From a virus (Duplodnaviria > Heunggongvirae > Uroviricota > Caudoviricetes): 18,937 bases of DNA. The notes under the pieces are model-generated. The model searched no databases and had not been told where the DNA came from. It saw only the letters and a list, made by a program, of their open reading frames with translations. The translations under genes and the position numbers were made by a program. Shown here in pieces: positions 1-11,023 of this stretch (position 1 is its first letter; each line of letters opens with the position of its first letter). Location: positions 1 through 18,937 of IMG/VR virus record IMGVR_UViG_2547132278_000005. The stretch is one strand, 5' to 3'.

Positions 1-293
1 TTGCGCACGTATTCGGTGAACGCACTATGGCGACGCTGGGGCGTCTTATGAGCCTGCTGTCACCCTTTGACGTGGTGATATGGATGACGGATGGCTGGCC
101 GCTGTATGAATCCCGCCTGAAGGGAAAGCTGCACGTAATCAGCAAGCGATATACGCAGCGAATTGAGCGGCATAACCTGAATCTGAGGCAGCACCTGGCA
201 CGGCTGGGACGGAAGTCGCTGTCGTTCTCAAAATCGGTGGAGCTGCATGACAAAGTCATCGGGCATTATCTGAACATAAAACACTATCAATAA
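1..293 (+). CDS. insB: IS1 transposase InsB, C-terminal part (5' end outside window)
   Basis: ORF 27-293 extended in frame to the window start; recognised IS1 InsB sequence; stop TAA at 291-293. Confidence 0.9.
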
Positions 294-308
294 GTTGGAG
301 TCATTACC
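286..308 (+). repeat. IS1 right terminal inverted repeat (23 bp)
   Basis: ATCAATAAGTTGGAGTCATTACC is the reverse complement of the IS1 terminal GGTAATGACTCCAACTTATTGAT. Confidence 0.85.
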
Positions 309-851
309 CGGGACACCGATCAGATTACCCACCAGTAAGGCCTGATAATTGATTAAAGTCCCGAGGTTAAAAGGCATGACACCGACCAGATTTTCTCTGC
401 TCGCCAGTAATCCTACAAATGCAGCAAACTGGAAAAGTATCAGAAACAGCGTTGCAGGAAACACAATCTGCCAGAATATACGCTGGGAAATTAAACGGGT
501 ATCACCATGTGAAACGTTGTTACGCCGGGGAGTAAAGACCCTGTAACCGCCCCAACAGAGAATGATAATGATAATAAAATTAGCCGTTAATGAGAGCGTT
601 TCGTAAAAACCCAGCTCTGCATATTTGCGGACAAAAATCCCTAAGGTGATCCCTGGCAATGCCGCCCAGCTGAAAAACATCATCATGCTGATCATCAGTG
701 CCAAAGGCAGATAAAAGAGAAAAACCTCACCGGAAGAAATATGCGCGAAAGTATTAATGTGGGCGAAAATGGGCAAGATTAAAGAAGGTAGGAACAGCGG
801 AAGCCCCCACCATTTATCACGTATTTTTATATAAGTTGCATTCAGTTTCAT
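309..851 (-). pseudogene. Polytopic inner-membrane protein gene truncated at its 3' end by the IS1 insertion (about 181 native codons remain)
   Basis: ORF 228-851 (minus) encodes about six hydrophobic helices; the reading frame runs into IS1 at 308/309 and the last ~26 residues are read from IS1 DNA. Identity of the protein not recognised. Confidence 0.6.
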
Positions 852-1202
852 AGATGCTCAGCAGAATCCCCCACATCCTGAAGGAGGTGTATTCAGACAG
901 GCATCCCACCTGACTTCGAATGATGATTATTCATCACTATAGAGAGCATTGATTCTAAGTGTCATATGAAAGTTCCAATTGATATATATCAAACAAAATA
1001 ACCCTGATTAATGAATTATTACGTTTATCATGTTAATTCATCATTATTACATCATCATTGTAAATAATTAAATTAACTTCCATAACATTAAAATATGTAT
1101 CCACTGACGCTTTTTTACATAACGAAGAATTGACCATTTTGTCCTGTTGTGCCTTAATGTAAGTACCGTCCACAGCGTGGGACATACTTCAAGGAACCTT
1201 TT

Positions 1203-1394
1203 GTGAGTCAGGCAACCAGTATGCGAAAACGACACCGATTTAACAGTCGCATGACCCGTATCGTACTGCTCATCAGCTTTATCTTCTTCTTTGGCCGTTT
1301 TATCTACTCGTCCGTCGGTGCCTGGCAGCACCATCAGAGCAAAAAAGAAGCTCAGCAATCCACACTCTCCGTCGAATCACCGGTACAACGTTAG
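1203..1394 (+). CDS. Hypothetical small single-TM protein (63 aa) in AT-rich spacer; speculative
   Basis: GTG start with AAGGA 7 nt upstream; basic N-terminus followed by one hydrophobic helix (IVLLISFIFFFGRFIY). No homology recognised; an antisense ORF overlaps it. Confidence 0.25.
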   Translation: MSQATSMRKRHRFNSRMTRIVLLISFIFFFGRFIYSSVGAWQHHQSKKEAQQSTLSVESPVQR

Positions 1395-1707
1395 CGGTTA
1401 CCTTCTCCACTTTCACAGAACATAACGGCACTTCGCTGTCGGATGCTTTTGCTGTTTGGGATTATCAAAGCGGCAGATATTCTTTCATCTTAAATTTTAC
1501 GTCTTTATCCTGACTGATGTTTATCCTGTTTGGCTGCGAAATAAATATAAAATTAATATATATGTTGTAATGATATATTTTTATAAATTATTCCCTGCGT
1601 GAATTTTAATAAATTTAATCTATCCCTTTATACGCAATACATTTACTTTCCTCTTTTGATGATCTTAAATGTCTTATTTTTCGTAATGTGTATAACAAGG
1701 AATAGTG

Positions 1708-2223
1708 ATGAAATTTAAAAAATGTCTTCTGCCTGTGGCAATGTTAGCGTCATTCACTCTGGCAGGATGCCAGTCAAATGCTGACGATCATGCTGCCGAT
1801 GTTTATCAAACCGATCAACTGAATACCAAACAAGAAACTAAAACCGTTAATATTATTTCCATTCTTCCCGCAAAAGTTGCCGTAGACAACTCCCAAAATA
1901 AACGGAACGCACAAGCCTTCGGCGCGCTTATTGGCGCAGTCGCTGGCGGTGTTATCGGCCACAACGTCGGGTCTGGCAGCAATTCCGGAACGACGGCAGG
2001 TGCAGTTGGCGGCGGAGCTGTAGGCGCGGCAGCGGGTTCTATGGTGAATGATAAAACCTTAGTGGAAGGTGTTTCTTTAACCTATAAGGAAGGCACCAAA
2101 GTGTATACCTCTACCCAGGTGGGTAAAGAGTGCCAGTTTACGACAGGTTTAGCCGTTGTTATTACCACGACGTATAACGAAACGCGTATTCAGCCAAATA
2201 CCAAATGTCCTGAAAAGAGCTAA
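1708..2223 (+). CDS. Outer-membrane lipoprotein with glycine-zipper region (YcfJ/SlyB/Pcp-like)
   Basis: Signal peptide with lipobox LAGC; Gly/Ala-rich stretch GALIGAVAGGVIGHNVGSGSNSGTTAGAVGGGAVGAAAG resembling YcfJ-type glycine zippers; ATG at 1708 with AAGGA SD (the ORF track starts at the GTG at 1705). Confidence 0.8.
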   Translation: MKFKKCLLPVAMLASFTLAGCQSNADDHAADVYQTDQLNTKQETKTVNIISILPAKVAVDNSQNKRNAQAFGALIGAVAGGVIGHNVGSGSNSGTTAGAVGGGAVGAAAGSMVNDKTLVEGVSLTYKEGTKVYTSTQVGKECQFTTGLAVVITTTYNETRIQPNTKCPEKS

Positions 2224-2238
2224 TAATCAGGAGGAGTC

Positions 2239-2778
2239 ATGAAGAAAGTTTTTCTTTGCGCCATCTTAGCCTCCTTAAGCTATCCGGCTATCGCCTCATC
2301 ATTGCAGGATCAACTCTCTGCTGTCGCAGAAGCGGAACAGCAAGGTAAAAATGAAGAGCAAAGGCAGCATGACGAATGGGTCGCGGAGCGCAACAGGGAA
2401 ATCCAGCAAGAGAAGCAACGTCGCGCAAATGCCCAGGCCGCCGCTAACAAAAGAGCGGCAACGGCAGCGGCAAATAAGAAAGCTCGTCAGGATAAACTGG
2501 ACGCCGAAGCCACTGCGGACAAAAAACGCGATCAAAGTTATGAAGATGAGCTACGCAGCTTAGAGATTCAGAAACAAAAACTGGCGCTGGCGAAAGAAGA
2601 AGCCCGCGTTAAGCGCGAAAACGAATTTATCGATCAGGAACTGAAGCACAAAGCTGCGCAAACCGATGTGGTGCAATCTGAAGCTGACGCCAACAGAAAT
2701 ATGACTGAAGGCGGTCGCGATCTGATGAAAAGCGTGGGCAAAGCAGAAGAGAACAAATCGGAAAGCTGGTTTAATTAA
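2239..2778 (+). CDS. Secreted/periplasmic charged coiled-coil protein
   Basis: Strong SD GGAGGAG; N-terminal signal peptide (MKKVFLCAILASLSYPAIA); remainder highly charged and Ala/Lys/Glu/Gln-rich, predicted helical. Confidence 0.75.
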   Translation: MKKVFLCAILASLSYPAIASSLQDQLSAVAEAEQQGKNEEQRQHDEWVAERNREIQQEKQRRANAQAAANKRAATAAANKKARQDKLDAEATADKKRDQSYEDELRSLEIQKQKLALAKEEARVKRENEFIDQELKHKAAQTDVVQSEADANRNMTEGGRDLMKSVGKAEENKSESWFN

Positions 2779-2816
2779 TCGATGTTAGTAACTTCAAGCC
2801 TATGATTCTTGAAGAT

Positions 2817-2849
2817 AAAAAACCCTCTGTAGTAACAGAGGGTTTTGTT
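2817..2849. terminator. Bidirectional rho-independent terminator between convergent genes
   Basis: AAAAA-CCCTCTG-tagtaa-CAGAGGG-TTTTGTT: 7-bp GC-rich stem flanked by an A-run and a T-run, lying between the 2239-2778 gene (+) and Rz (-). Confidence 0.7.
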
Positions 2850-2995
2850 CATTCATAGTGCAGGGTCAAATCATTCCCACTCAATTATTTACGGACACCA
2901 TAACCAATTGAGTAATAACATTTTTCCAAAGATGAATTTTTCCCATACCGTTTTATATACCGTCACCGGAAATCAGTACCATGAAAAATGCCATG

Positions 2996-3478
2996 CTATC
3001 TGGTCAGGGTGTCGTACTGTTTTTCGCAGACTCTTCCGGCTTCGGCTGCCCGGTCAGCATACTCTGCCAGTTGTCTGTTTCTCTCGAGAGATTTGCTGAG
3101 CACGTCGGCAAGCAAAACTCCGGTGTCTGCGGCTGACGACCCAGCGCCGACAATGGCGTTATAGTGCCTGAGCTGCTCACGGATGGCAACGAGCTGTTGC
3201 TGCAACCGGCCAGCGCGAGCGGCAGCATCAAGAGCATCATTGCGCGCCTGGTCGATCCTCTGCTGCGATTCACGTTCATTGATCGCTTTCTCCTGTTCGT
3301 AGTGCTGACGAACTCTCTCATCTTCAGTTTTGCGGTCTTCTTTCGCCTGAGCATACCCGGCGTCGTACTGACGACTGCCGTGCACATTCCAGGCTACAAC
3401 TCCTGATATGACCAGAACAGCAAGCATCGCCATGATAACCAACTGTTTTCTGTATGCTTTTACGAATGCCCAGATCAT
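2996..3478 (-). CDS. Rz-like i-spanin (inner-membrane spanin subunit)
   Basis: N-terminal TM helix, charged coiled-coil periplasmic domain; start overlaps the endolysin stop (ATGA); last gene of the lysis cassette. Confidence 0.8.
3004..3240 (-). CDS. Rz1-like o-spanin lipoprotein embedded in the +1 frame of Rz
   Basis: Internal ATG of ORF 3004-3387 gives [17 protein letters not shown]... with lipobox LAGC and a Pro/Ser-rich mature part, fully inside Rz. Exact start (3240 vs 3237) uncertain. Confidence 0.6.
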   Translation of the reverse strand: MMLLMLPLALAGCSNSSLPSVSSSGTITPLSALGRQPQTPEFCLPTCSANLSRETDNWQSMLTGQPKPEESAKNSTTP

Positions 3479-4402: not shown

Positions 4403-4793
4403 CGTCTTTTCTCCCCGGAATTAACTCGCGTGGATTATCTGAACGGTGATAGAGCCATATGCCAATACGCACAGCCACAATTGCTGAAACAAATGCACCA
4501 ACAGAAAAGGCCACTCCGCCTTCAAAAGAATCCTGTGTAATCGTTGGAATTAAGCTGGCTACTCCTATTAGGATTGACGAAGTTGGTTTGTAGAAGAGCA
4601 ATCCACAAAGGAAACTAAGCATGGACAAAAGAACTCTGCGACGAACTGGATACTCTACGGCAGAGGTAATGAAAATTACCGCCCCAGATAAAGAACCTAA
4701 TGCAACCTCTGGTGGCACACCTGCAATAAAAGCAATCAGGCCACCAACGCCAATTGATTGATTTAATTGGTAATTTGTAAATACACCAGACAT
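4389..4793 (-). CDS. Holin-like membrane protein (4 predicted TM helices)
   Basis: Four hydrophobic helices and a charged C-terminus ([19 protein letters not shown]); ATG at 4793 preceded by GGTGG (the ORF track starts at the GTG at 4802, which has no SD). Confidence 0.55.
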   Translation of the reverse strand: MSGVFTNYQLNQSIGVGGLIAFIAGVPPEVALGSLSGAVIFITSAVEYPVRRRVLLSMLSFLCGLLFYKPTSSILIGVASLIPTITQDSFEGGVAFSVGAFVSAIVAVRIGIWLYHRSDNPRELIPGRKDDGNA

Positions 4794-4850
4794 TTCAACC
4801 ACCCGTTAACATACATAAAAACCTCGTTAATCAAAAATAGAAACACATAA

Positions 4851-4886
4851 ATTAATAAAACCACCCGTTATGCGGGTGGTTTTATT
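4851..4886. terminator. Rho-independent terminator after the tailspike gene (functional on minus strand, possibly bidirectional)
   Basis: AAAA-CCACCCG-ttatg-CGGGTGG-TTTTATTT; on the minus strand the stem is followed by TTTTATTAAT. Confidence 0.7.
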
Positions 4887-4901
4887 TCATCCACTTACTT
4901 C

Positions 4902-7400
4902 TTATATGGCTACCATGGCTGTAGAGCCAGAGCCATAGGCACTTGATTCTAACTCGAGAGTGTAATATCCATTCTTAGTACCACCATCAACTCCTGACCA
5001 ATCAAATGATAATGAAATCCAGTAACCACTTTCACTAGGATCTTGCACAAGATTGTCACCCATACCCCTTATACGCCTAATAGGTTGATTAGGGCCGACA
5101 GAATCAACTTCATATATATCTGTCATATTTCGTCCTATCTGTCTGGCTGTGATAACAGGCCAAGAGCCACTATAATTTAATATAGTAACAAGGAATTGAG
5201 TGTCATTGTTTATCTTGGAAAGTATAGCTTCAATATACCCATTACCATGCGTTCCTCCTTTTGAGTTTATGCGTAGCTTTGCTATCCCAGTGTCAAACAT
5301 ATTTAGTCTGTTATCAAACGTTCTTGGATGCAGATCAGCTGGAAGAGGCAATCGAATAGAAGATAAAGTATATGGGGATGGTGTATCTTCTGGATTACCT
5401 ATGATCATATTTGGTAATCTTACTACAATTGATTCTCTAACCCCTTTTTGAATACCAGTTACCGGTTGGGATAAATGAACATGGACTGGGCGTATAGTAA
5501 TCCCCTGAATACTTGCATATCCTGTTGTTGTACCATTAAGATTATTAAATATAGCTATAGTTTTCCACCCTCTCCCCACTAAATTAGCAGCTCGTTTGGG
5601 AATTGTATCAAGTTTATGATTATGTCTATTTCTTAAAAAACGACCTGTTGATTGCTGAGCATATAAATTATGCCATAAGCTAGAACGTTGTGTTGAATAT
5701 GGATATATATCAACTGCTCCGGCATACCATCCATCAGTGACAATTGATATCTGATTATCATCCCAATAACCAATTACATCTACCTCAGCAGCCTCAGCAT
5801 CAAGATAAAAACTAAATGTTGCCATTGCTGCTGTATTAATGGGAAAGCCACCAAGAATACCTTGTAAAGTTGAAGCTCTTTGATTATAAACATTCACTAA
5901 GTTTGAATATACATCATAAAATCCGACTTGATCAGATTGTTTTCCAGGCCATGTATGCACTTCAGATGATATTGGTCTGTTACCCTGAAGTAACCCTCCA
6001 CCCAAAAGCATGGATACCATTGCCTCTCCTAAAATAGCATATCCTTTACTATTAAAGTGAACAGGGTCGCTTTGAATAGAACCATACTGTCTATTATAAG
6101 CAATTTCATGGGCAGGAAAATAAGCACATCCATAAACTGATGCAAGATTTCTTATTGACTCTCCCCACATTTGCCAAAGAGGATCCCCTTCCCCATTACC
6201 ACCGCTGGCAGGACTACAAAGTACAACCCCCATCCCCCAGTCAATAAGCTTACGAATAAATAACTCCATATTTTTCATATATGTATCGTAAGTCTGGCTA
6301 TCAGTATTAGCGGAGTCGTTAATTGCATACATTAAAAATGCTATATCGCAATTTGGATTAGACTGCCAATCAGGTTCATTATAAGCACGGTACGCTGTAT
6401 AACCTGATTTTGCTCGAACAGTTATTGTTACCGGGCAGCCAGACAATATTGGAAGTGCGTTCTTTATAGCCTTTGGATATGTCATTGTTGCATGGCGATA
6501 ATTATCACCAACGCAAACATCATCATCTTCTGGAGCGATAGTATCGGATGTATTAACATCATATCCAGCCGTTATTGAGTCCCCCTGACACAATATTTTT
6601 ATCCCTATTTTTTTTCGTAACTTATAATGAGCTAACGTAAGGTTTCTGATATTTTTTGAACGGTATTCTGCACTATCAAGAGATATCAACCACTCTTGAA
6701 TATTACGATTATCCGATGTATTAATAATGCTGGCACCTGTTGGCTTTGCCAACTCAATAAGTACATCAGATGCTGAACCAGATTCAGGAAGGACCATTAT
6801 CGGATTTCCAGAGTCATCCATAGCAACAATCTTATTCTTACGCTGCTCAATTCCCGGCAAAGCTGGTATAGGTTCAGGGGTTCGTAGCGTTCTGATCTGG
6901 TTTGTTTCAGAAACTCCATCAACATAATTTTTAGTCGCCGCATCTTGAGCGCGTGACGGTTCACGAAGATTGCGAATGTAGTTTCCCTGTGCATCATAAT
7001 AGTTAGCCACAAACGACGGCTTGCGTAACGCCAGGCTAAACCAGCTACGAACCTGCTGAATCAACATCGTTATTTTATCAAAAGCATTCTCATGCACTTC
7101 TGCAAAAAACTTTCCCTGATTACGCAGATCCATTTCCTGAGTAACAGGAAGCTCACGAGCTATAGATATCTGATGACCTCTAGCCAACGCCTCCGACAGA
7201 ACAACACTGCCGCCGTTGTACCCTCCAGCCCCGGTAACTGTGTAATCAGTATCAAGGGTCAGCACACTGACATTCTCGTTCAGGTCAACAACCTGCACCA
7301 CCAGATCCGATTTATTGAAAATCCTAAAGGTGTAAGGAAATGATGTCGTAACGCCGTTACCTGTGTATTCGTTGTGGTCAACTTCGGTTGAGACCGTCAT
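4902..7400 (-). CDS. Tailspike / receptor-binding protein with T7 gp17-like N-terminal anchor and central SGNH (GDSL) esterase domain
   Basis: 832 aa; N-terminus (YTGNGVTTSFPYTF...LVVQVVD...VLTLDTDYTV) resembles the conserved podovirus tail-fibre anchor; SGNH blocks GDS at 6576-6584 (ILCQGDSITAGYD) and DPVH (catalytic Asp/His) in SDPVHFNSKGY; SD GGAGA. Confidence 0.85.
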   Translation of the reverse strand: MTVSTEVDHNEYTGNGVTTSFPYTFRIFNKSDLVVQVVDLNENVSVLTLDTDYTVTGAGGYNGGSVVLSEALARGHQISIARELPVTQEMDLRNQGKFFAEVHENAFDKITMLIQQVRSWFSLALRKPSFVANYYDAQGNYIRNLREPSRAQDAATKNYVDGVSETNQIRTLRTPEPIPALPGIEQRKNKIVAMDDSGNPIMVLPESGSASDVLIELAKPTGASIINTSDNRNIQEWLISLDSAEYRSKNIRNLTLAHYKLRKKIGIKILCQGDSITAGYDVNTSDTIAPEDDDVCVGDNYRHATMTYPKAIKNALPILSGCPVTITVRAKSGYTAYRAYNEPDWQSNPNCDIAFLMYAINDSANTDSQTYDTYMKNMELFIRKLIDWGMGVVLCSPASGGNGEGDPLWQMWGESIRNLASVYGCAYFPAHEIAYNRQYGSIQSDPVHFNSKGYAILGEAMVSMLLGGGLLQGNRPISSEVHTWPGKQSDQVGFYDVYSNLVNVYNQRASTLQGILGGFPINTAAMATFSFYLDAEAAEVDVIGYWDDNQISIVTDGWYAGAVDIYPYSTQRSSLWHNLYAQQSTGRFLRNRHNHKLDTIPKRAANLVGRGWKTIAIFNNLNGTTTGYASIQGITIRPVHVHLSQPVTGIQKGVRESIVVRLPNMIIGNPEDTPSPYTLSSIRLPLPADLHPRTFDNRLNMFDTGIAKLRINSKGGTHGNGYIEAILSKINNDTQFLVTILNYSGSWPVITARQIGRNMTDIYEVDSVGPNQPIRRIRGMGDNLVQDPSESGYWISLSFDWSGVDGGTKNGYYTLELESSAYGSGSTAMVAI

Positions 7401-7503
7401 GTTAAATCTCCAGATAGTCGCAGCACCCGTTGCGCCGCATATCCGGTTATTCTATTACCTTAAAAACCACATATGGATAGATAACCCATAAATACGAATA
7501 GAT

Positions 7504-7520
7504 ATTACCTTTCGGGTAAT
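7504..7520. promoter_or_regulatory. Operator-like palindrome ATTACC-tttcg-GGTAAT (copy 1 of 4)
   Basis: Perfect 6-bp inverted arms with 5-bp spacer in the divergent region between the tailspike and the LexA-box gene; the same arms recur at 8624, 8717 and 9725. Confidence 0.5.
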
Positions 7521-7556
7521 TTGCAAAACGTGCTGGATAGCAAACAAATTATTTGC

Positions 7557-7576
7557 TACTGTATAAATATACAGTT
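7557..7576 (+). promoter_or_regulatory. LexA (SOS) box
   Basis: TACTGTATAAATATACAGTT against consensus TACTGTATATATATACAGTA (CTGT-N8-ACAG, 18/20), ending 20 bp upstream of the ATG at 7596. Confidence 0.75.
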
Positions 7577-7595
7577 ATTGCATGGAGAAGATAAG

Positions 7596-7853
7596 ATGCA
7601 GCAGTATCACTATCCACTGGAAGACGGATTTACCGAAAGGATTCACACGCCGGGAGGCGTCAGATCACTAGTGGAGGGATCGCACTTGATGAAATTACTC
7701 CGGGATCTCGATAAGGATGGATTTAATGTCGATGGCCCACTTGCCGAACTGACTGCACTGATTAACTACGTCACCAGCTCACAGATGTCTATGCGGGATC
7801 TGCAAACACATCTCGACTATTGTGCCGAACAATTACGAAAACAAACCCGGTAA
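7596..7853 (+). CDS. Small SOS-regulated protein (85 aa), paralog of the C-terminal domain of the AntA-like antirepressor; putative antirepressor module
   Basis: ATG with SD GGAGAAG directly downstream of the LexA box; aligns with residues ~130-210 of the 9004-9660 protein (shared GxxSL.E.S.LM.LL..L..DG..V.G..AELT...Y......RD.QTH..Y). The ORF track starts upstream at 7521, but that extension overlaps the promoter/LexA box. Confidence 0.65.
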   Translation: MQQYHYPLEDGFTERIHTPGGVRSLVEGSHLMKLLRDLDKDGFNVDGPLAELTALINYVTSSQMSMRDLQTHLDYCAEQLRKQTR

Positions 7854-7860
7854 ATTTAAA

Positions 7861-7876
7861 GGCCGCAAGAGCGGCC
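7861..7876. terminator. GC hairpin (GGCCGC-aaga-GCGGCC) between convergent genes, putative bidirectional terminator
   Basis: Perfect 6-bp GC stem flanked by AT-rich sequence on both sides; overlaps the stop of the minus-strand 7876-8604 gene. Confidence 0.5.
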
Positions 7877-8604
7877 TATCGTTTCGCTTTGTGCTCGTCC
7901 CAGCACGTTTTGCACCATGCCATTAAGCCATCCGCATTTTGATTATTAGGGTAAAAGCTTGTTCGTTTTCTGCGGACATTACAAATTGGGCACCACTTCA
8001 TATGGCGTGTATTCTTTGGGCCATCGAGACACCTTGCACACCACTTAGTCAATCCATCTGGATTTTTTGACGATTTCCTGAATTTTTCATATGGTAGGTT
8101 TATTCTGCATCGCAAGCACTGCTTGCTACCACTTGAAACTCTGTTAGCTGATTCTTCTTTTGGCGGCGATACAGAAGGTATTCTTGCTGGCTCTGATACT
8201 GCCTGAGGTGCTTTTTTAGATGACTGAGACGATATGTCATCACCAGGGAATCTTCCATGATATGCCGGACGCGTTGACACTCCAGGTGGAAGCTCAGCTG
8301 TAAACGGCTTTGGCTGAATCAGTTGCCTCTCTTTTGCTAACTCCTGCTGTTTATAATATGTCTGGATTACCGCACTATCATAAGCAGGAGGTGCGGAAAT
8401 ATTAGGCGCATTACCTCCAGTTTTTTGAAACTGAGTAGAGGTGTGTTCTATCACCTGTGTACGATTAATCGTTATCTCCCCATCTTCGGTCTTTATCGTT
8501 TTGTTATGATTAACGACCGTACGATCAGAGATCTTAGTCTTGTTCTGGTTGATAACGTAAATAATCACCGCAACCACACCAACAACTATCCAGAAAACTT
8601 CCAT
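7876..8604 (-). CDS. Membrane-anchored protein with two tandem C-x2-C-x20-C-x2-C zinc-ribbon repeats
   Basis: N-terminal TM helix (FWIVVGVVAVIIYVI), Pro/Ser-rich linker, then CLRCRINLPYEKFRKSSKNPDGLTKWCARC and CPICNVRRKRTSFYPNNQNADGLMAWCKTC (shared N.DGL..WC..C); SD GAGGA. Confidence 0.75.
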   Translation of the reverse strand: MEVFWIVVGVVAVIIYVINQNKTKISDRTVVNHNKTIKTEDGEITINRTQVIEHTSTQFQKTGGNAPNISAPPAYDSAVIQTYYKQQELAKERQLIQPKPFTAELPPGVSTRPAYHGRFPGDDISSQSSKKAPQAVSEPARIPSVSPPKEESANRVSSGSKQCLRCRINLPYEKFRKSSKNPDGLTKWCARCLDGPKNTRHMKWCPICNVRRKRTSFYPNNQNADGLMAWCKTCWDEHKAKR

Positions 8605-8623
8605 TGCTTTTCCTCACAATAAC

Positions 8624-8640
8624 ATTACCTTAAAGGTAAT
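8624..8640. promoter_or_regulatory. Operator-like palindrome ATTACC-ttaaa-GGTAAT (copy 2 of 4)
   Basis: Perfect palindrome about 20 bp upstream of the start codon of the 7876-8604 gene, abutting its SD. Confidence 0.5.
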
Positions 8641-8716
8641 ATCTTGCTTTCAGGTGATCAAGCGTTAAACGCAATCAACCAAATACGGTTGATTTTAATA
8701 TTTCTTCGCGTTTATC

Positions 8717-8733
8717 ATTACCTTTGCGGTAAA
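8717..8733. promoter_or_regulatory. Operator-like palindrome ATTACC-tttgc-GGTAAa (copy 3 of 4)
   Basis: Same arms and spacing as the other copies; lies at the head of the structured leader upstream of the AntA-like gene. Confidence 0.5.
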
Positions 8734-8767
8734 TTTACATTGCACTCCTCTTGTGCCATAGTAATCG

Positions 8768-8845
8768 GGCACTGGCAAAATCCAGTGCCGGGATTGGTCT
8801 CCCGGATTACTAAGTGGCGCATACCACGCCAGACGTGGTTTTTTT
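8768..8845 (+). other. Structured non-coding leader: two GC hairpins followed by a terminator-like hairpin with T-run (possible attenuator or small RNA)
   Basis: GGCACTGG-caaaat-CCAGTGCC (8768-8789); CCGGGA-ttggtc-TCCCGG (8788-8805); CCACG-ccaga-CGTGG-TTTTTTT (8824-8845). No credible ORF or RBS in this stretch. Confidence 0.3.
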
Positions 8846-9003
8846 ATGCGTATAGCACAGTCATGCCAGAATTATGGTGGGCTGAATGGGGGTCCGAAAG
8901 GACGCCGGTACCACTTAGGCCGGTAAGACCAACTCCGTTCAGTTCACCACCATCTGATTGGTCTCAGCGGTGGTGATGTAATTCGCTAAGTGGAGACGCC
9001 ATC

Positions 9004-9660
9004 ATGAACGCTCAACTCATCCCCGTATTCAACGGCACTATATCTAACGAAACAGCCCTACTTTGTAATGCCCGCGATCTGCACGCTTTTTTAGGTGTTA
9101 AAAAGGTGTTTGCAGCATGGATTACAAATCGCATATCAGAATACGAATTCATTGAAAATCAAGACTATATTTTGCTTTCCAATTTGGGAAAGCAAACATC
9201 TGGTAGAGGCGGCCACAACCGCAAAGAGTACCACCTCACCCTTGATACAGCCAAAGAGCTGGCGATGGTCGAGCGTAACGAAAAAGGTCGCCAGGTGCGA
9301 CGCTACTTCATTGAATGCGAGAAACGTTTAAGACAACAAGAAACAAAAGTGGAGAAGGTCTTGTCAGGCTTCATGCCCGCCATTATGGAGGCGATCAAGC
9401 TGGAAGACAAAAAAGAATACAGCGCCCCACTGAAGCCCGGCTACCGTAGCCTGATTCATTCGCCGTCTGGTGTTCTCGGCCTGACGGAGAACTCACTGCT
9501 GATGAATTTGCTGAACCAGTTACAGGAAGACGGGCACGACGTATCGGGCGCGGCGGCGGAACTGACCACCATGTTCTGCTACATCGTCGGTGTGAGCAAA
9601 TGCCTGCGTGATATCCAGACCCACGCGGAGTACATCAACGACAAGGCAGGGTTCTTCTGA
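9004..9660 (+). CDS. AntA-family phage antirepressor-like protein (N-terminal AntA domain plus C-terminal domain shared with the 7596-7853 protein)
   Basis: N-terminus LIPVFNG...[33 protein letters not shown]...[14 protein letters not shown]...[11 protein letters not shown] matches the AntA/AntB antirepressor family pattern; SD GGAG. Confidence 0.8.
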
Positions 9661-9724
9661 CAGAACGGCGGCACAGGGATGTGCCTTTAAATAATTCTGT
9701 ACGATTGCAGGTGAATAGCTTACT

Positions 9725-9741
9725 ATTACCTCAAGGGTAAG
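9725..9741. promoter_or_regulatory. Operator-like palindrome ATTACC-tcaag-GGTAAg (copy 4 of 4)
   Basis: Same arms and spacing; about 60 bp upstream of the 9800 start codon and downstream of a weak hairpin terminator (9670-9696). Confidence 0.5.
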
Positions 9742-9799
9742 AAAGCATTTTTAATCTTCCCTTCAAAACGCGTCCTGTAGCCAAACATGGGAGGACGAA

Positions 9800-10432
9800 A
9801 TGAGAACAAATACAACAAGAAAAGCGATGCCATACATTATCCCAGAAGCAGATTTCGATAGAAAACTGAACATGTCTGAGAAGAACACTAGTCACACCGA
9901 AAGCTACTTAGCGAAAGGTGTGGTTGATTTCGTTCTTCCGGGATTCACAACACCTTATGGTTATCGCCTTGTAAAATCTTGTAATGGCGATCATTACAGA
10001 ATGATTACTACCAGCGATACTCCAGAAACGGTGTATGCGGTTAAGTTAATCTTTCGGGAAGATATCGTCGAAGCCAAAAGAACATGTACGCAGATCATGG
10101 TATGGCGTACGCCTAATGTTATTCATGACCGTGCTGTTCATGGTTTGCCTCAGATTTTTTTTCAGTTCTTCCTAGAGCAATATGCGATCGTTGTATCTGA
10201 TGAGCAACAAACAATCGATGGGAGAAGATTCTGGGAAAGAATGATTTCTTGGGCTATAAACACCCCGGGATATAATGTATACGTTTCAGATGGCTCTGAA
10301 GAAGATAGACCTCTTAGCTTCATGACATCATGGGATGATTTCTATAGCCAGTGGGCTGATTTCTGTTGGGGCAGTGATAAAGATGTGCATACCCACAGAC
10401 TACTGGTTATAAGCAAAGATAAACTGCATTAA
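9800..10432 (+). CDS. Hypothetical protein (210 aa), unassigned accessory-island gene
   Basis: Strong SD GGGAGGA; soluble, Trp/Asp-rich, no recognised motif; followed immediately by a strong terminator. Confidence 0.75.
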   Translation: MRTNTTRKAMPYIIPEADFDRKLNMSEKNTSHTESYLAKGVVDFVLPGFTTPYGYRLVKSCNGDHYRMITTSDTPETVYAVKLIFREDIVEAKRTCTQIMVWRTPNVIHDRAVHGLPQIFFQFFLEQYAIVVSDEQQTIDGRRFWERMISWAINTPGYNVYVSDGSEEDRPLSFMTSWDDFYSQWADFCWGSDKDVHTHRLLVISKDKLH

Positions 10433-10437
10433 TAGAA

Positions 10438-10458
10438 GCCCGCGCCGCGGGCTTTTTT
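10438..10458 (+). terminator. Rho-independent terminator
   Basis: GCCCG-cgccg-CGGGC followed by TTTTTT, 6 bp after the stop codon at 10430-10432. Confidence 0.8.
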
Positions 10459-10495
10459 GTGTCTGCGGATTCCCGCCCGGGCGGCGGTGGCATTC

Positions 10496-10522
10496 GTTAA
10501 AAACAAGGCCGCGAAAGCGGCC
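10496..10522 (-). terminator. Rho-independent terminator for the minus-strand membrane-protein gene
   Basis: On the minus strand GGCCGC-tttc-GCGGCC is followed by TTGTTTTTAA; lies just downstream of the stop at 10532. Confidence 0.6.
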
Positions 10523-10531
10523 TGTGACATG

Positions 10532-10828
10532 TCACGCTCTTTTTCTGAATGATAGCCATTCGAAAAATGATGACATTCCACCGCAGACAATAGCAAATAT
10601 GATCCCACCAAAGAAGAGAAGGCCAGCCTGCCACCACTCCCACCGCCATACATCCACAGCGCCAACCATACCAACAATCGCTCCAACAAATGGAATATAG
10701 CTCACGATGAAAGCAATGGGGGCTGCAATTATCCAGTGCAATCCCCACCATGATTCAAGCCCAGCCATAATTGCTGCCAACTGAAAAAGACCAACGACGA
10801 TATAAACAATGAATCCTATAGCTTGCAT
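10532..10828 (-). CDS. Small polytopic membrane protein (98 aa), candidate superinfection-exclusion-type protein
   Basis: SD AGGTGA; 3-4 hydrophobic helices, Trp-rich loop (VWRWEWWQAG); sits directly after the ejection-protein genes, the position sieA occupies in P22. Confidence 0.7.
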   Translation of the reverse strand: MQAIGFIVYIVVGLFQLAAIMAGLESWWGLHWIIAAPIAFIVSYIPFVGAIVGMVGAVDVWRWEWWQAGLLFFGGIIFAIVCGGMSSFFEWLSFRKRA

Positions 10829-10840
10829 GTAGTCACCTAT

Positions 10841-10993
10841 TTACCCAGTAAAAATCAGAGGCCTCCCCTCAATAAGGCTTGCAACAAGAACTATTCCCTG
10901 CACAACAAAGATGAACCAGCAAATAGCTTGAGTCTGAGGGTTAAGAAAATATTTGTAGCGGTCAATAAATAACAACCCACCAGAAATTATCAC
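10841..10993 (-). CDS. Possible small hydrophobic peptide (50 aa, GTG start); speculative
   Basis: Hand-translated minus-strand ORF (V/M)IISGGLLFIDRYKYFLNPQTQAICWFIFVVQGIVLVASLIEGRPLIFTG; no clear SD. Confidence 0.2.
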   Translation of the reverse strand: MIISGGLLFIDRYKYFLNPQTQAICWFIFVVQGIVLVASLIEGRPLIFTG

Positions 10994-11023
10994 ACTCAAA
11001 ATAATTAAAAACACAACACTTCC

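Follow-up and report, generated by a model that had tools for sequence, protein, structure and literature searches.

Introduction

[quoted passage not shown] The published model for phage SPC32H holds, in outline, that ant is repressed by LexA until DNA damage relieves this repression, whereupon a tetramer of the antirepressor Ant breaks up the non-cleavable tetramer of the repressor Rep, and the Ant-Rep complex is available as PDB 5D50 (Kim and Ryu 2013, J Virol; Kim et al. 2016, PNAS). A paper summarising the structural work of Kim et al. 2016 reports Ant as a tetramer and credits it alone with repressor inactivation. According to a 2025 preprint, the repressor is trapped by SPC32H Ant in a conformation that is not functional.

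Antirepressor genes may also be wired to small RNAs. In Gifsy-1, read-through of the IsrK terminator gives an inactive mRNA, whose translation is turned on by the short form of IsrK acting in trans (PMC4825925). In the E. coli phage ZX5, which is related to the phage studied here and is inducible by mitomycin C, overexpression of a large antirepressor with a Bro-N domain reduced the prophage titre from 10^9 to 10^6 PFU/mL and lowered lysogeny; only this large Bro-N protein was treated as an antirepressor in that study (PMC9782041).

Here, we analyze a prophage window in which a small gene for an 85-aa protein and a larger paralogue lie close together. We conclude with high confidence that the small gene represents ant of an epsilon15/phiV10-like (Uetakevirus) E. 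coli prophage, encoding an SOS-controlled antirepressor that probably acts according to the SPC32H model, and that the large paralogue is a second antirepressor.

Phage identity and gene content of the window

The window, by which we mean the whole stretch of 18,937 nt that was analyzed, is an epsilon15/phiV10-like podovirus prophage (Uetakevirus) of E. coli, and the records nearest to it are those of TL-2011b, phiv142-3, phiV10 and ZX5. The stretch from 7400 to 11000, which includes both antirepressor genes, is present entire in no complete E. coli genome of the collection searched; the best partial matches among these genomes cover 85% of it at 96.9% identity and 79% of it at 98.0% identity.

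At one end of the window (1-2996), plus-strand ORFs are found where SPC32H has an integrase following the Rz-like gene, and no ORF of integrase size is present in this interval. It codes for a DNA-methyltransferase-like protein of 172 aa (1705-2223, phrog_1277) and a protein of 179 aa to which no function was assigned (2239-2778). Further along, the minus strand encodes a tail-fibre/tailspike protein of 832 aa (4902-7400) with a T7-tail-like N-terminus and a GDSL lipase/esterase domain at about residues 270-460, which suggests a deacetylating receptor-binding protein. This gene differs among related phages.

Inserted between the two antirepressor modules is a 242-aa ORF on the minus strand (7876-8604), convergent with ant and matching phrog_6762 (unknown function). 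Its product has a hydrophobic stretch at the N-terminus, and the C-terminus, which is rich in Cys, gives weak matches of the zinc-ribbon, endonuclease VII and Lar-like kinds. In the TL-2011b record, the corresponding region is labelled only as a misc_feature. A GC-rich hairpin between ant and this ORF (7860-7877) is a probable terminator, a terminator-like site being called there on the minus strand; the epsilon15 record gives a terminator stem-loop at the equivalent place after gp19.

A small gene orthologous to SPC32H ant

The small gene lies on the plus strand at 7596-7853. When searched against PDB sequences with phmmer, its 85-aa product had a sole match, chain E of 5D50 ("Anti-repressor protein", 86 aa; E=1.4e-46), and the alignment runs end to end (query residues 2-84 against chain residues 3-85). 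It shares 86% identity with SPC32H Ant (85 vs 86 aa) and matches phrog_450 with E=7e-48, and the homologous DNA of SPC32H is annotated "ant: anti-repressor protein". A Pfam scan of the 85-aa protein (E<=0.01) gave a sub-threshold match to DUF724 only, and none to a described antirepressor family of the 186 Tum or P22 Ant/KilAC type.

The gene is preceded by the Shine-Dalgarno motif indicated in the initial annotation, which is read directly from the sequence as GGAG at 7584-7587, 8 nt 5' of the ATG at 7596, and is invariant in the nine phages that we compared. Between ant of the window and that of SPC32H we counted 57 nucleotide differences, 42 of which fall at codon position 3, and the codon changes are synonymous in 35 cases and nonsynonymous in 12. 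Since third-position and synonymous changes prevail, ant is a real coding gene constrained by purifying selection. Sister E. coli phages have ant DNA that is about 96-97% identical.

Gene order tells the same story. In SPC32H, ant occupies a slot between the tailspike gene and genes for a small membrane protein and an 824-aa protein, and the arrangement in the window is exactly alike. The slot is filled by gp19 in epsilon15 and by p24 in phiV10, again between the tailspike/tail-fibre gene and genes of the gp17/18 type. When the regions of these three phages are set against the ORF map of the window, ant is divergent from the tailspike/tail-fibre gene and faces the gp17/18-type genes throughout. 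Homology, synteny and the possession of a LexA box (see below) all agree, and on these sequence comparisons the small gene is an SPC32H-type ant.

Genetic and structural studies of SPC32H have already dealt with a small, LexA-gated antirepressor of precisely this family, and the system is therefore already known. The practical value of recognising the small ant is one of annotation. Nearly all of the copies from E. coli, Klebsiella, Citrobacter and Enterobacter go under the name "hypothetical protein", and PHROGs gives phrog_450 as of unknown function. The presence of the small ant would also explain the SOS inducibility of phiV10-type prophages, those of EHEC and APEC included.

A LexA box and a candidate promoter upstream of ant

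A near-consensus LexA box had been proposed upstream of the small gene, and we could confirm it: the sequence TACTGTATAAATATACAGTT at 7557-7576 matches the 20-bp consensus TACTGTATATATATACAGTA at 18 of 20 positions. This predicted SOS box is the only site of the window within three mismatches of the consensus, and no such site occurs in 200 dinucleotide-preserving shuffles. It is likewise the only exact CTGT-N8-ACAG in the window; when one mismatch is allowed, this pattern gives nine sites, none of which lies between 7575 and 10382. The box stands 19 bases from the ATG of ant and 157 bases from the start of the tail-fibre gene. The spacing of 20 bp to the ATG given by the initial annotation was thus nearly right, the exact value being off by one, as the start codon begins at 7596 and not at 7597.

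An alignment of the region between the tailspike gene and ant was made for nine phages of E. coli, Salmonella, Enterobacter and Klebsiella, and in it the box of the window falls on that of SPC32H. Seven of the nine keep both the CTGT and the ACAG arm, with a variable 8-bp spacer in between (ATAAATAT, ATATTTAT, GTATTTAT, ATGTTTAT, ATAAGCAT, ACATATAT). In the other two, both Klebsiella phages, the CTGT arm is replaced by ATGT.

A standard scan for the sigma-70 consensus identified no promoter upstream of ant, and its output overall was at the level of shuffled sequence. A relaxed scan based on conservation gave a weak candidate on the plus strand at 7534-7562, with a -35 element TGGATA (7534-7539), a spacer of 17 bp and an extended -10 element TG-n-TACTGT (hexamer at 7557-7562), which scores 7/12 and is the only -35/-10 pair found at the same alignment columns in seven of the nine phages. 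The CTGGATA and T.TG.TA blocks that are invariant in the alignment may be accounted for by this candidate promoter, whose position we infer from sequence. The LexA box begins with the six bases of the candidate -10 hexamer, and LexA could therefore occlude both the -10 element and the start site.

Upstream of the candidate promoter, at 7504-7520 and 37 bp from the LexA box, lies an exact copy of the palindrome ATTACC-N5-GGTAAT, whose half-sites are invariant in all nine phages and which resembles an operator of Rep (see next section). Together with the altered arm in the two Klebsiella phages, this conserved element might be taken to mean that the box is not used by LexA at all, and that ant is controlled mainly by the phage repressor through the palindrome or is transcribed out of the divergent tail-fibre region. 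We regard this as highly improbable, given the closeness of the box to the consensus and its absence elsewhere in the window and in the shuffles, the fixed arms around a variable spacer in seven of the nine phages, and the position of the box near ant rather than the tail-fibre start. Moreover, the ortholog is reported to be LexA-controlled in the review cited above (PMC7380047). LexA control of ant hence remains the favoured reading, to which the palindrome suggests a further layer of control, outside a simple LexA-only model.

The Rep repressor and its putative operators

A tblastn search of the window with SPC32H Rep gave nothing significant. In SPC32H, rep is located in the early region about 14 kb from ant, so that its absence from an 18.9-kb window centred on late genes is expected. 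A 210-aa ORF at 9800-10432 (phrog_1349) was considered as a candidate for Rep and discarded, as it is without any PDB relative. Rep is thus assumed from the sister phages to be the target of Ant in this prophage. The Rep of these sister E. coli phages is 42% identical to that of SPC32H, rising to 53% in residues 1-72, the NLVNRW stretch included, and we infer by analogy that the exact Ant-Rep binding mode of SPC32H may extend to the E. coli phages. The conservation between the E. coli and Salmonella lineages is asymmetric, Ant being far better conserved than its cognate Rep (86% vs 42%).

The ATTACC-N5-GGTAAT palindrome flanks rep in four copies in SPC32H and in three copies in phiV10 (with at most one mismatch), and the epsilon15 record annotates it as repressor-binding, both next to rep and upstream of gp19. 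The window has four palindromes with at most one mismatch (two exact and two with one mismatch), every one of them in the antirepressor region, and allowing two mismatches gives seven sites where 0.65 are expected. Besides the copy upstream of ant, a second exact one (8624-8640) is located upstream of the second antirepressor module and has an equivalent in TL-2011b. It is followed at a distance of 93 bp by a copy with one mismatch (8717-8733), which adjoins promoter-like hexamers, and the palindromes of TL-2011b show the same 93-bp spacing. The fourth copy (9725-9741, one mismatch) precedes the 210-aa ORF. On the evidence of these sites, Rep probably binds also in front of the genes of its own antagonists.

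A second, larger antirepressor behind an RNA leader

The large antirepressor gene is located on the plus strand at 9004-9660 and encodes 218 aa. Its assignment to the AntA family, made in the initial annotation, is upheld by a Pfam match to AntA (PF08346) at residues 22-92 (E=4e-26), which is the only Pfam match of the protein, the C-terminal domain having none. This C-terminal, Ant-like domain (residues about 137-218, bases 9412-9657) is recognised by other means: it matches 5D50_E with E=4.6e-14 and phrog_450 with E=4e-36. The small protein had also been suspected to be a paralogue of the large one, and this is borne out by BLASTP, which aligns residues 2-75 of the 85-aa protein with residues 137-210 of the 218-aa protein without gaps (32/74 identities, 43%; E=6e-17). 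The C-terminal 82 residues of the large protein are identical to those of the TL-2011b and ZX5 antirepressors, whose N-terminal domain is Bro-N and not AntA.

In phiV10, a frameshift truncates the Ant-like C-terminal domain of the corresponding Bro-N protein (annotated "putative anti-immunity protein", 4727-5311), and ant is intact. This phage probably relies on the small Ant alone.

No LexA-like site was found near 8600-9004. The 400-bp leader of the large gene instead contains two RNA elements in tandem on the plus strand, each of which exceeds the gathering threshold of its Rfam family. The first is an IsrK-family sRNA (8769-8845; RF01394, 67.7 bits, threshold 50) and has an intrinsic terminator made up of a hairpin (8823-8839) and a run of T; the second is a C4-family antisense RNA element (8870-8954; RF01695, 61.2 bits, threshold 45). 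The IsrK/C4 pair likewise precedes the large antirepressor gene in four relatives (ZX5, TL-2011b, phiV10 and Tyrion), and is absent from the SPC32H locus, which has no large antirepressor gene. A mechanically called ORF of 110 aa (8644-8976) spans both RNAs and has no family match; it is probably not a gene. TL-2011b has at 8514-8581, a few kb beyond its antirepressor region, a stretch that matches the antisense RNA family of P22 sar with 44.8 bits (RF00262; gathering score 43), and no sar counterpart was reported in the window.

Since the LexA box is present only at the small gene and the IsrK/C4 leader only at the large one, the two antirepressors appear, as far as their upstream sequences indicate, to respond to different signals.

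Distribution of the Ant-like domain

The Ant-like domain was found in 34 of 50,697 phage records. An SPC32H-type Rep is encoded in 36 records, and these include every one of the 34. Because the shared C-terminal domain is confined to Rep-bearing phages, it tracks the repressor family, as a repressor-binding module should. When 1.84 billion cluster representatives were searched exhaustively with a profile, only 62 clusters came up at E<=0.001, mostly stand-alone proteins of 80-95 aa, with some of 150-319 aa that carry the domain at the C-terminus; a word-indexed protein search gave close stand-alone homologues only, and the fused forms came from the exhaustive search. The N-terminal domains fused to the Ant-like domain are of the AntA, Bro-N, Phage_pRha and ORF6N kinds. 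The AntA N-terminal domain by itself is also found in Stx phages.

The domain occurs at 56 places in the 34 phage records, so that many of these phages must carry both a small and a large form. Such coexistence, the identity of the two proteins over their common domain and the tetramer reported for SPC32H Ant, which makes mixed oligomers conceivable, could all be accommodated if the small protein served to modulate the large AntA-type antirepressor or to act as its decoy, a role that the initial annotation had offered as an option. However, SPC32H and epsilon15 keep ant together with its LexA box and have no large paralogue, the large gene of phiV10 is broken within the shared domain next to an intact ant, and in the summary of the SPC32H work repressor inactivation is credited to Ant by itself. 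Because phages with ant alone exist, we reject a decoy function, which appears very improbable, in favour of a direct antirepressor role for the small protein.

It is also conceivable that the two antirepressors have different targets, the small Ant acting on the resident Rep and the large protein on the repressors of other prophages. The limited identity of the two domains would allow for this, and trans-acting cross-talk of such a kind is documented for Gifsy and Fels-2, according to the accounts in PMC3121763 and PMC7380047. Yet the C-terminal domain of the large type is restricted to phages with an SPC32H-type Rep, and the ZX5 protein with an identical C-terminal domain affected the lysogeny of ZX5 itself on overexpression (PMC9782041). 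Separate targets therefore seem unlikely, and a common action of both proteins on Rep is preferred.

What these comparisons add to the published core is modest and comparative in nature: the apparent restriction of the domain to Rep-bearing phages, the four kinds of N-terminal domain, the presumed RNA gating of the second copy and the operator-like sites before both genes. As a tentative reading, the Ant fold might be a portable Rep-specific module used twice in one prophage, once alone under LexA for SOS signals and a second time behind IsrK/C4 for signals other than SOS, there joined to a KilA-N-type domain that can be swapped. With Rep operators before both genes, the repressor would hold down its own antagonists, and mixed oligomers could integrate the signals. 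The co-occurrence with Rep, the swapping of N-terminal domains and the placement of the operators are compatible with this reading and no proof of it.

A model for control of the prophage

The proposal that the small gene encodes an antirepressor which is induced by SOS and consists of nothing but the repressor-binding module is supported by orthology with 5D50, synteny with SPC32H, the conserved LexA box and the LexA control reported for the ortholog. In the lysogen, host LexA would sit on 7557-7576, overlapping the likely -10 element and start site, and keep ant off. Upon DNA damage, LexA would cleave itself and Ant would be made. By analogy with SPC32H, the Ant tetramer would then bind Rep and split the DNA-binding Rep tetramer into dimers, derepressing the lytic genes. 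Rep, a protein with two HTH motifs that is described as non-cleavable in this phage group, would be encoded outside the window. Both LexA binding and Ant-Rep binding are presumed for this phage. The product of 9004-9660 would act as a second antirepressor, in which the Rep-directed module that it shares with Ant forms the C-terminus behind an N-terminal domain that can be swapped; its gene lacks a LexA box and is wired to the IsrK/C4 leader.

Comparison with known systems

The closest system is the Ant/Rep/LexA switch of SPC32H, with which the window shares an orthologous Ant in the same slot, the arms of the LexA box, the Shine-Dalgarno motif and the upstream ATTACC-N5-GGTAAT palindrome. The two differ in host (Salmonella vs E. 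coli here) and in the low identity of the Rep of the E. coli lineage, and the window has about 3 kb inserted downstream of ant, which contains the 242-aa ORF, the putatively RNA-gated second antirepressor and other ORFs.

The initial annotation had likened the small gene to Tum of coliphage 186 and to the antirepressors of Gifsy and Fels-2. The shared logic stands, as Tum of 186, Tum of Fels-2 and GfoA/GfhA of Gifsy are LexA-repressed small antirepressors that inactivate a repressor not cleaved by RecA, but these are functional analogues only, the true family being that of the characterised and crystallised SPC32H Ant. AntC of phage N15 is another LexA-repressed small antirepressor of the same logic. 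No sequence relationship of Ant to Tum, GfoA/GfhA or AntC was detected, Pfam giving nothing above threshold and 5D50 being the sole PDB relative.

For the region 8769-9660, and not for the LexA-controlled gene, the likeness is to isrK-orf45-anrP of Gifsy-1 and to C4-icd-ant of immI in P1/P7, in that an IsrK-family sRNA with its terminator, a C4-family element and a short ORF come in this order before the large antirepressor gene of the window. In P1 immI, it is the C4-ant arrangement that resembles the leader of the large antirepressor of the window. RNA-dependent control of the antirepressor at the level of translation or termination, for which the experimental demonstration is confined to Gifsy-1, may by analogy operate on 9004-9660. 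In contrast to Gifsy-1 and P1, the leader of the window is preceded by two Rep-operator-like palindromes. The short ORF annotated in ZX5 is not in a conserved frame with that of the window.

Finally, the immI region of P22 (mnt, arc, ant, sar) is an antirepressor module placed among late genes next to the tailspike. The window has its antirepressor module in the same kind of place, and the sar RNA match in TL-2011b adds to the resemblance. The two differ in regulation, with LexA and an sRNA leader here vs Mnt and Arc in P22, and in the antirepressor protein family, Pfam recognising AntA on the large protein only.
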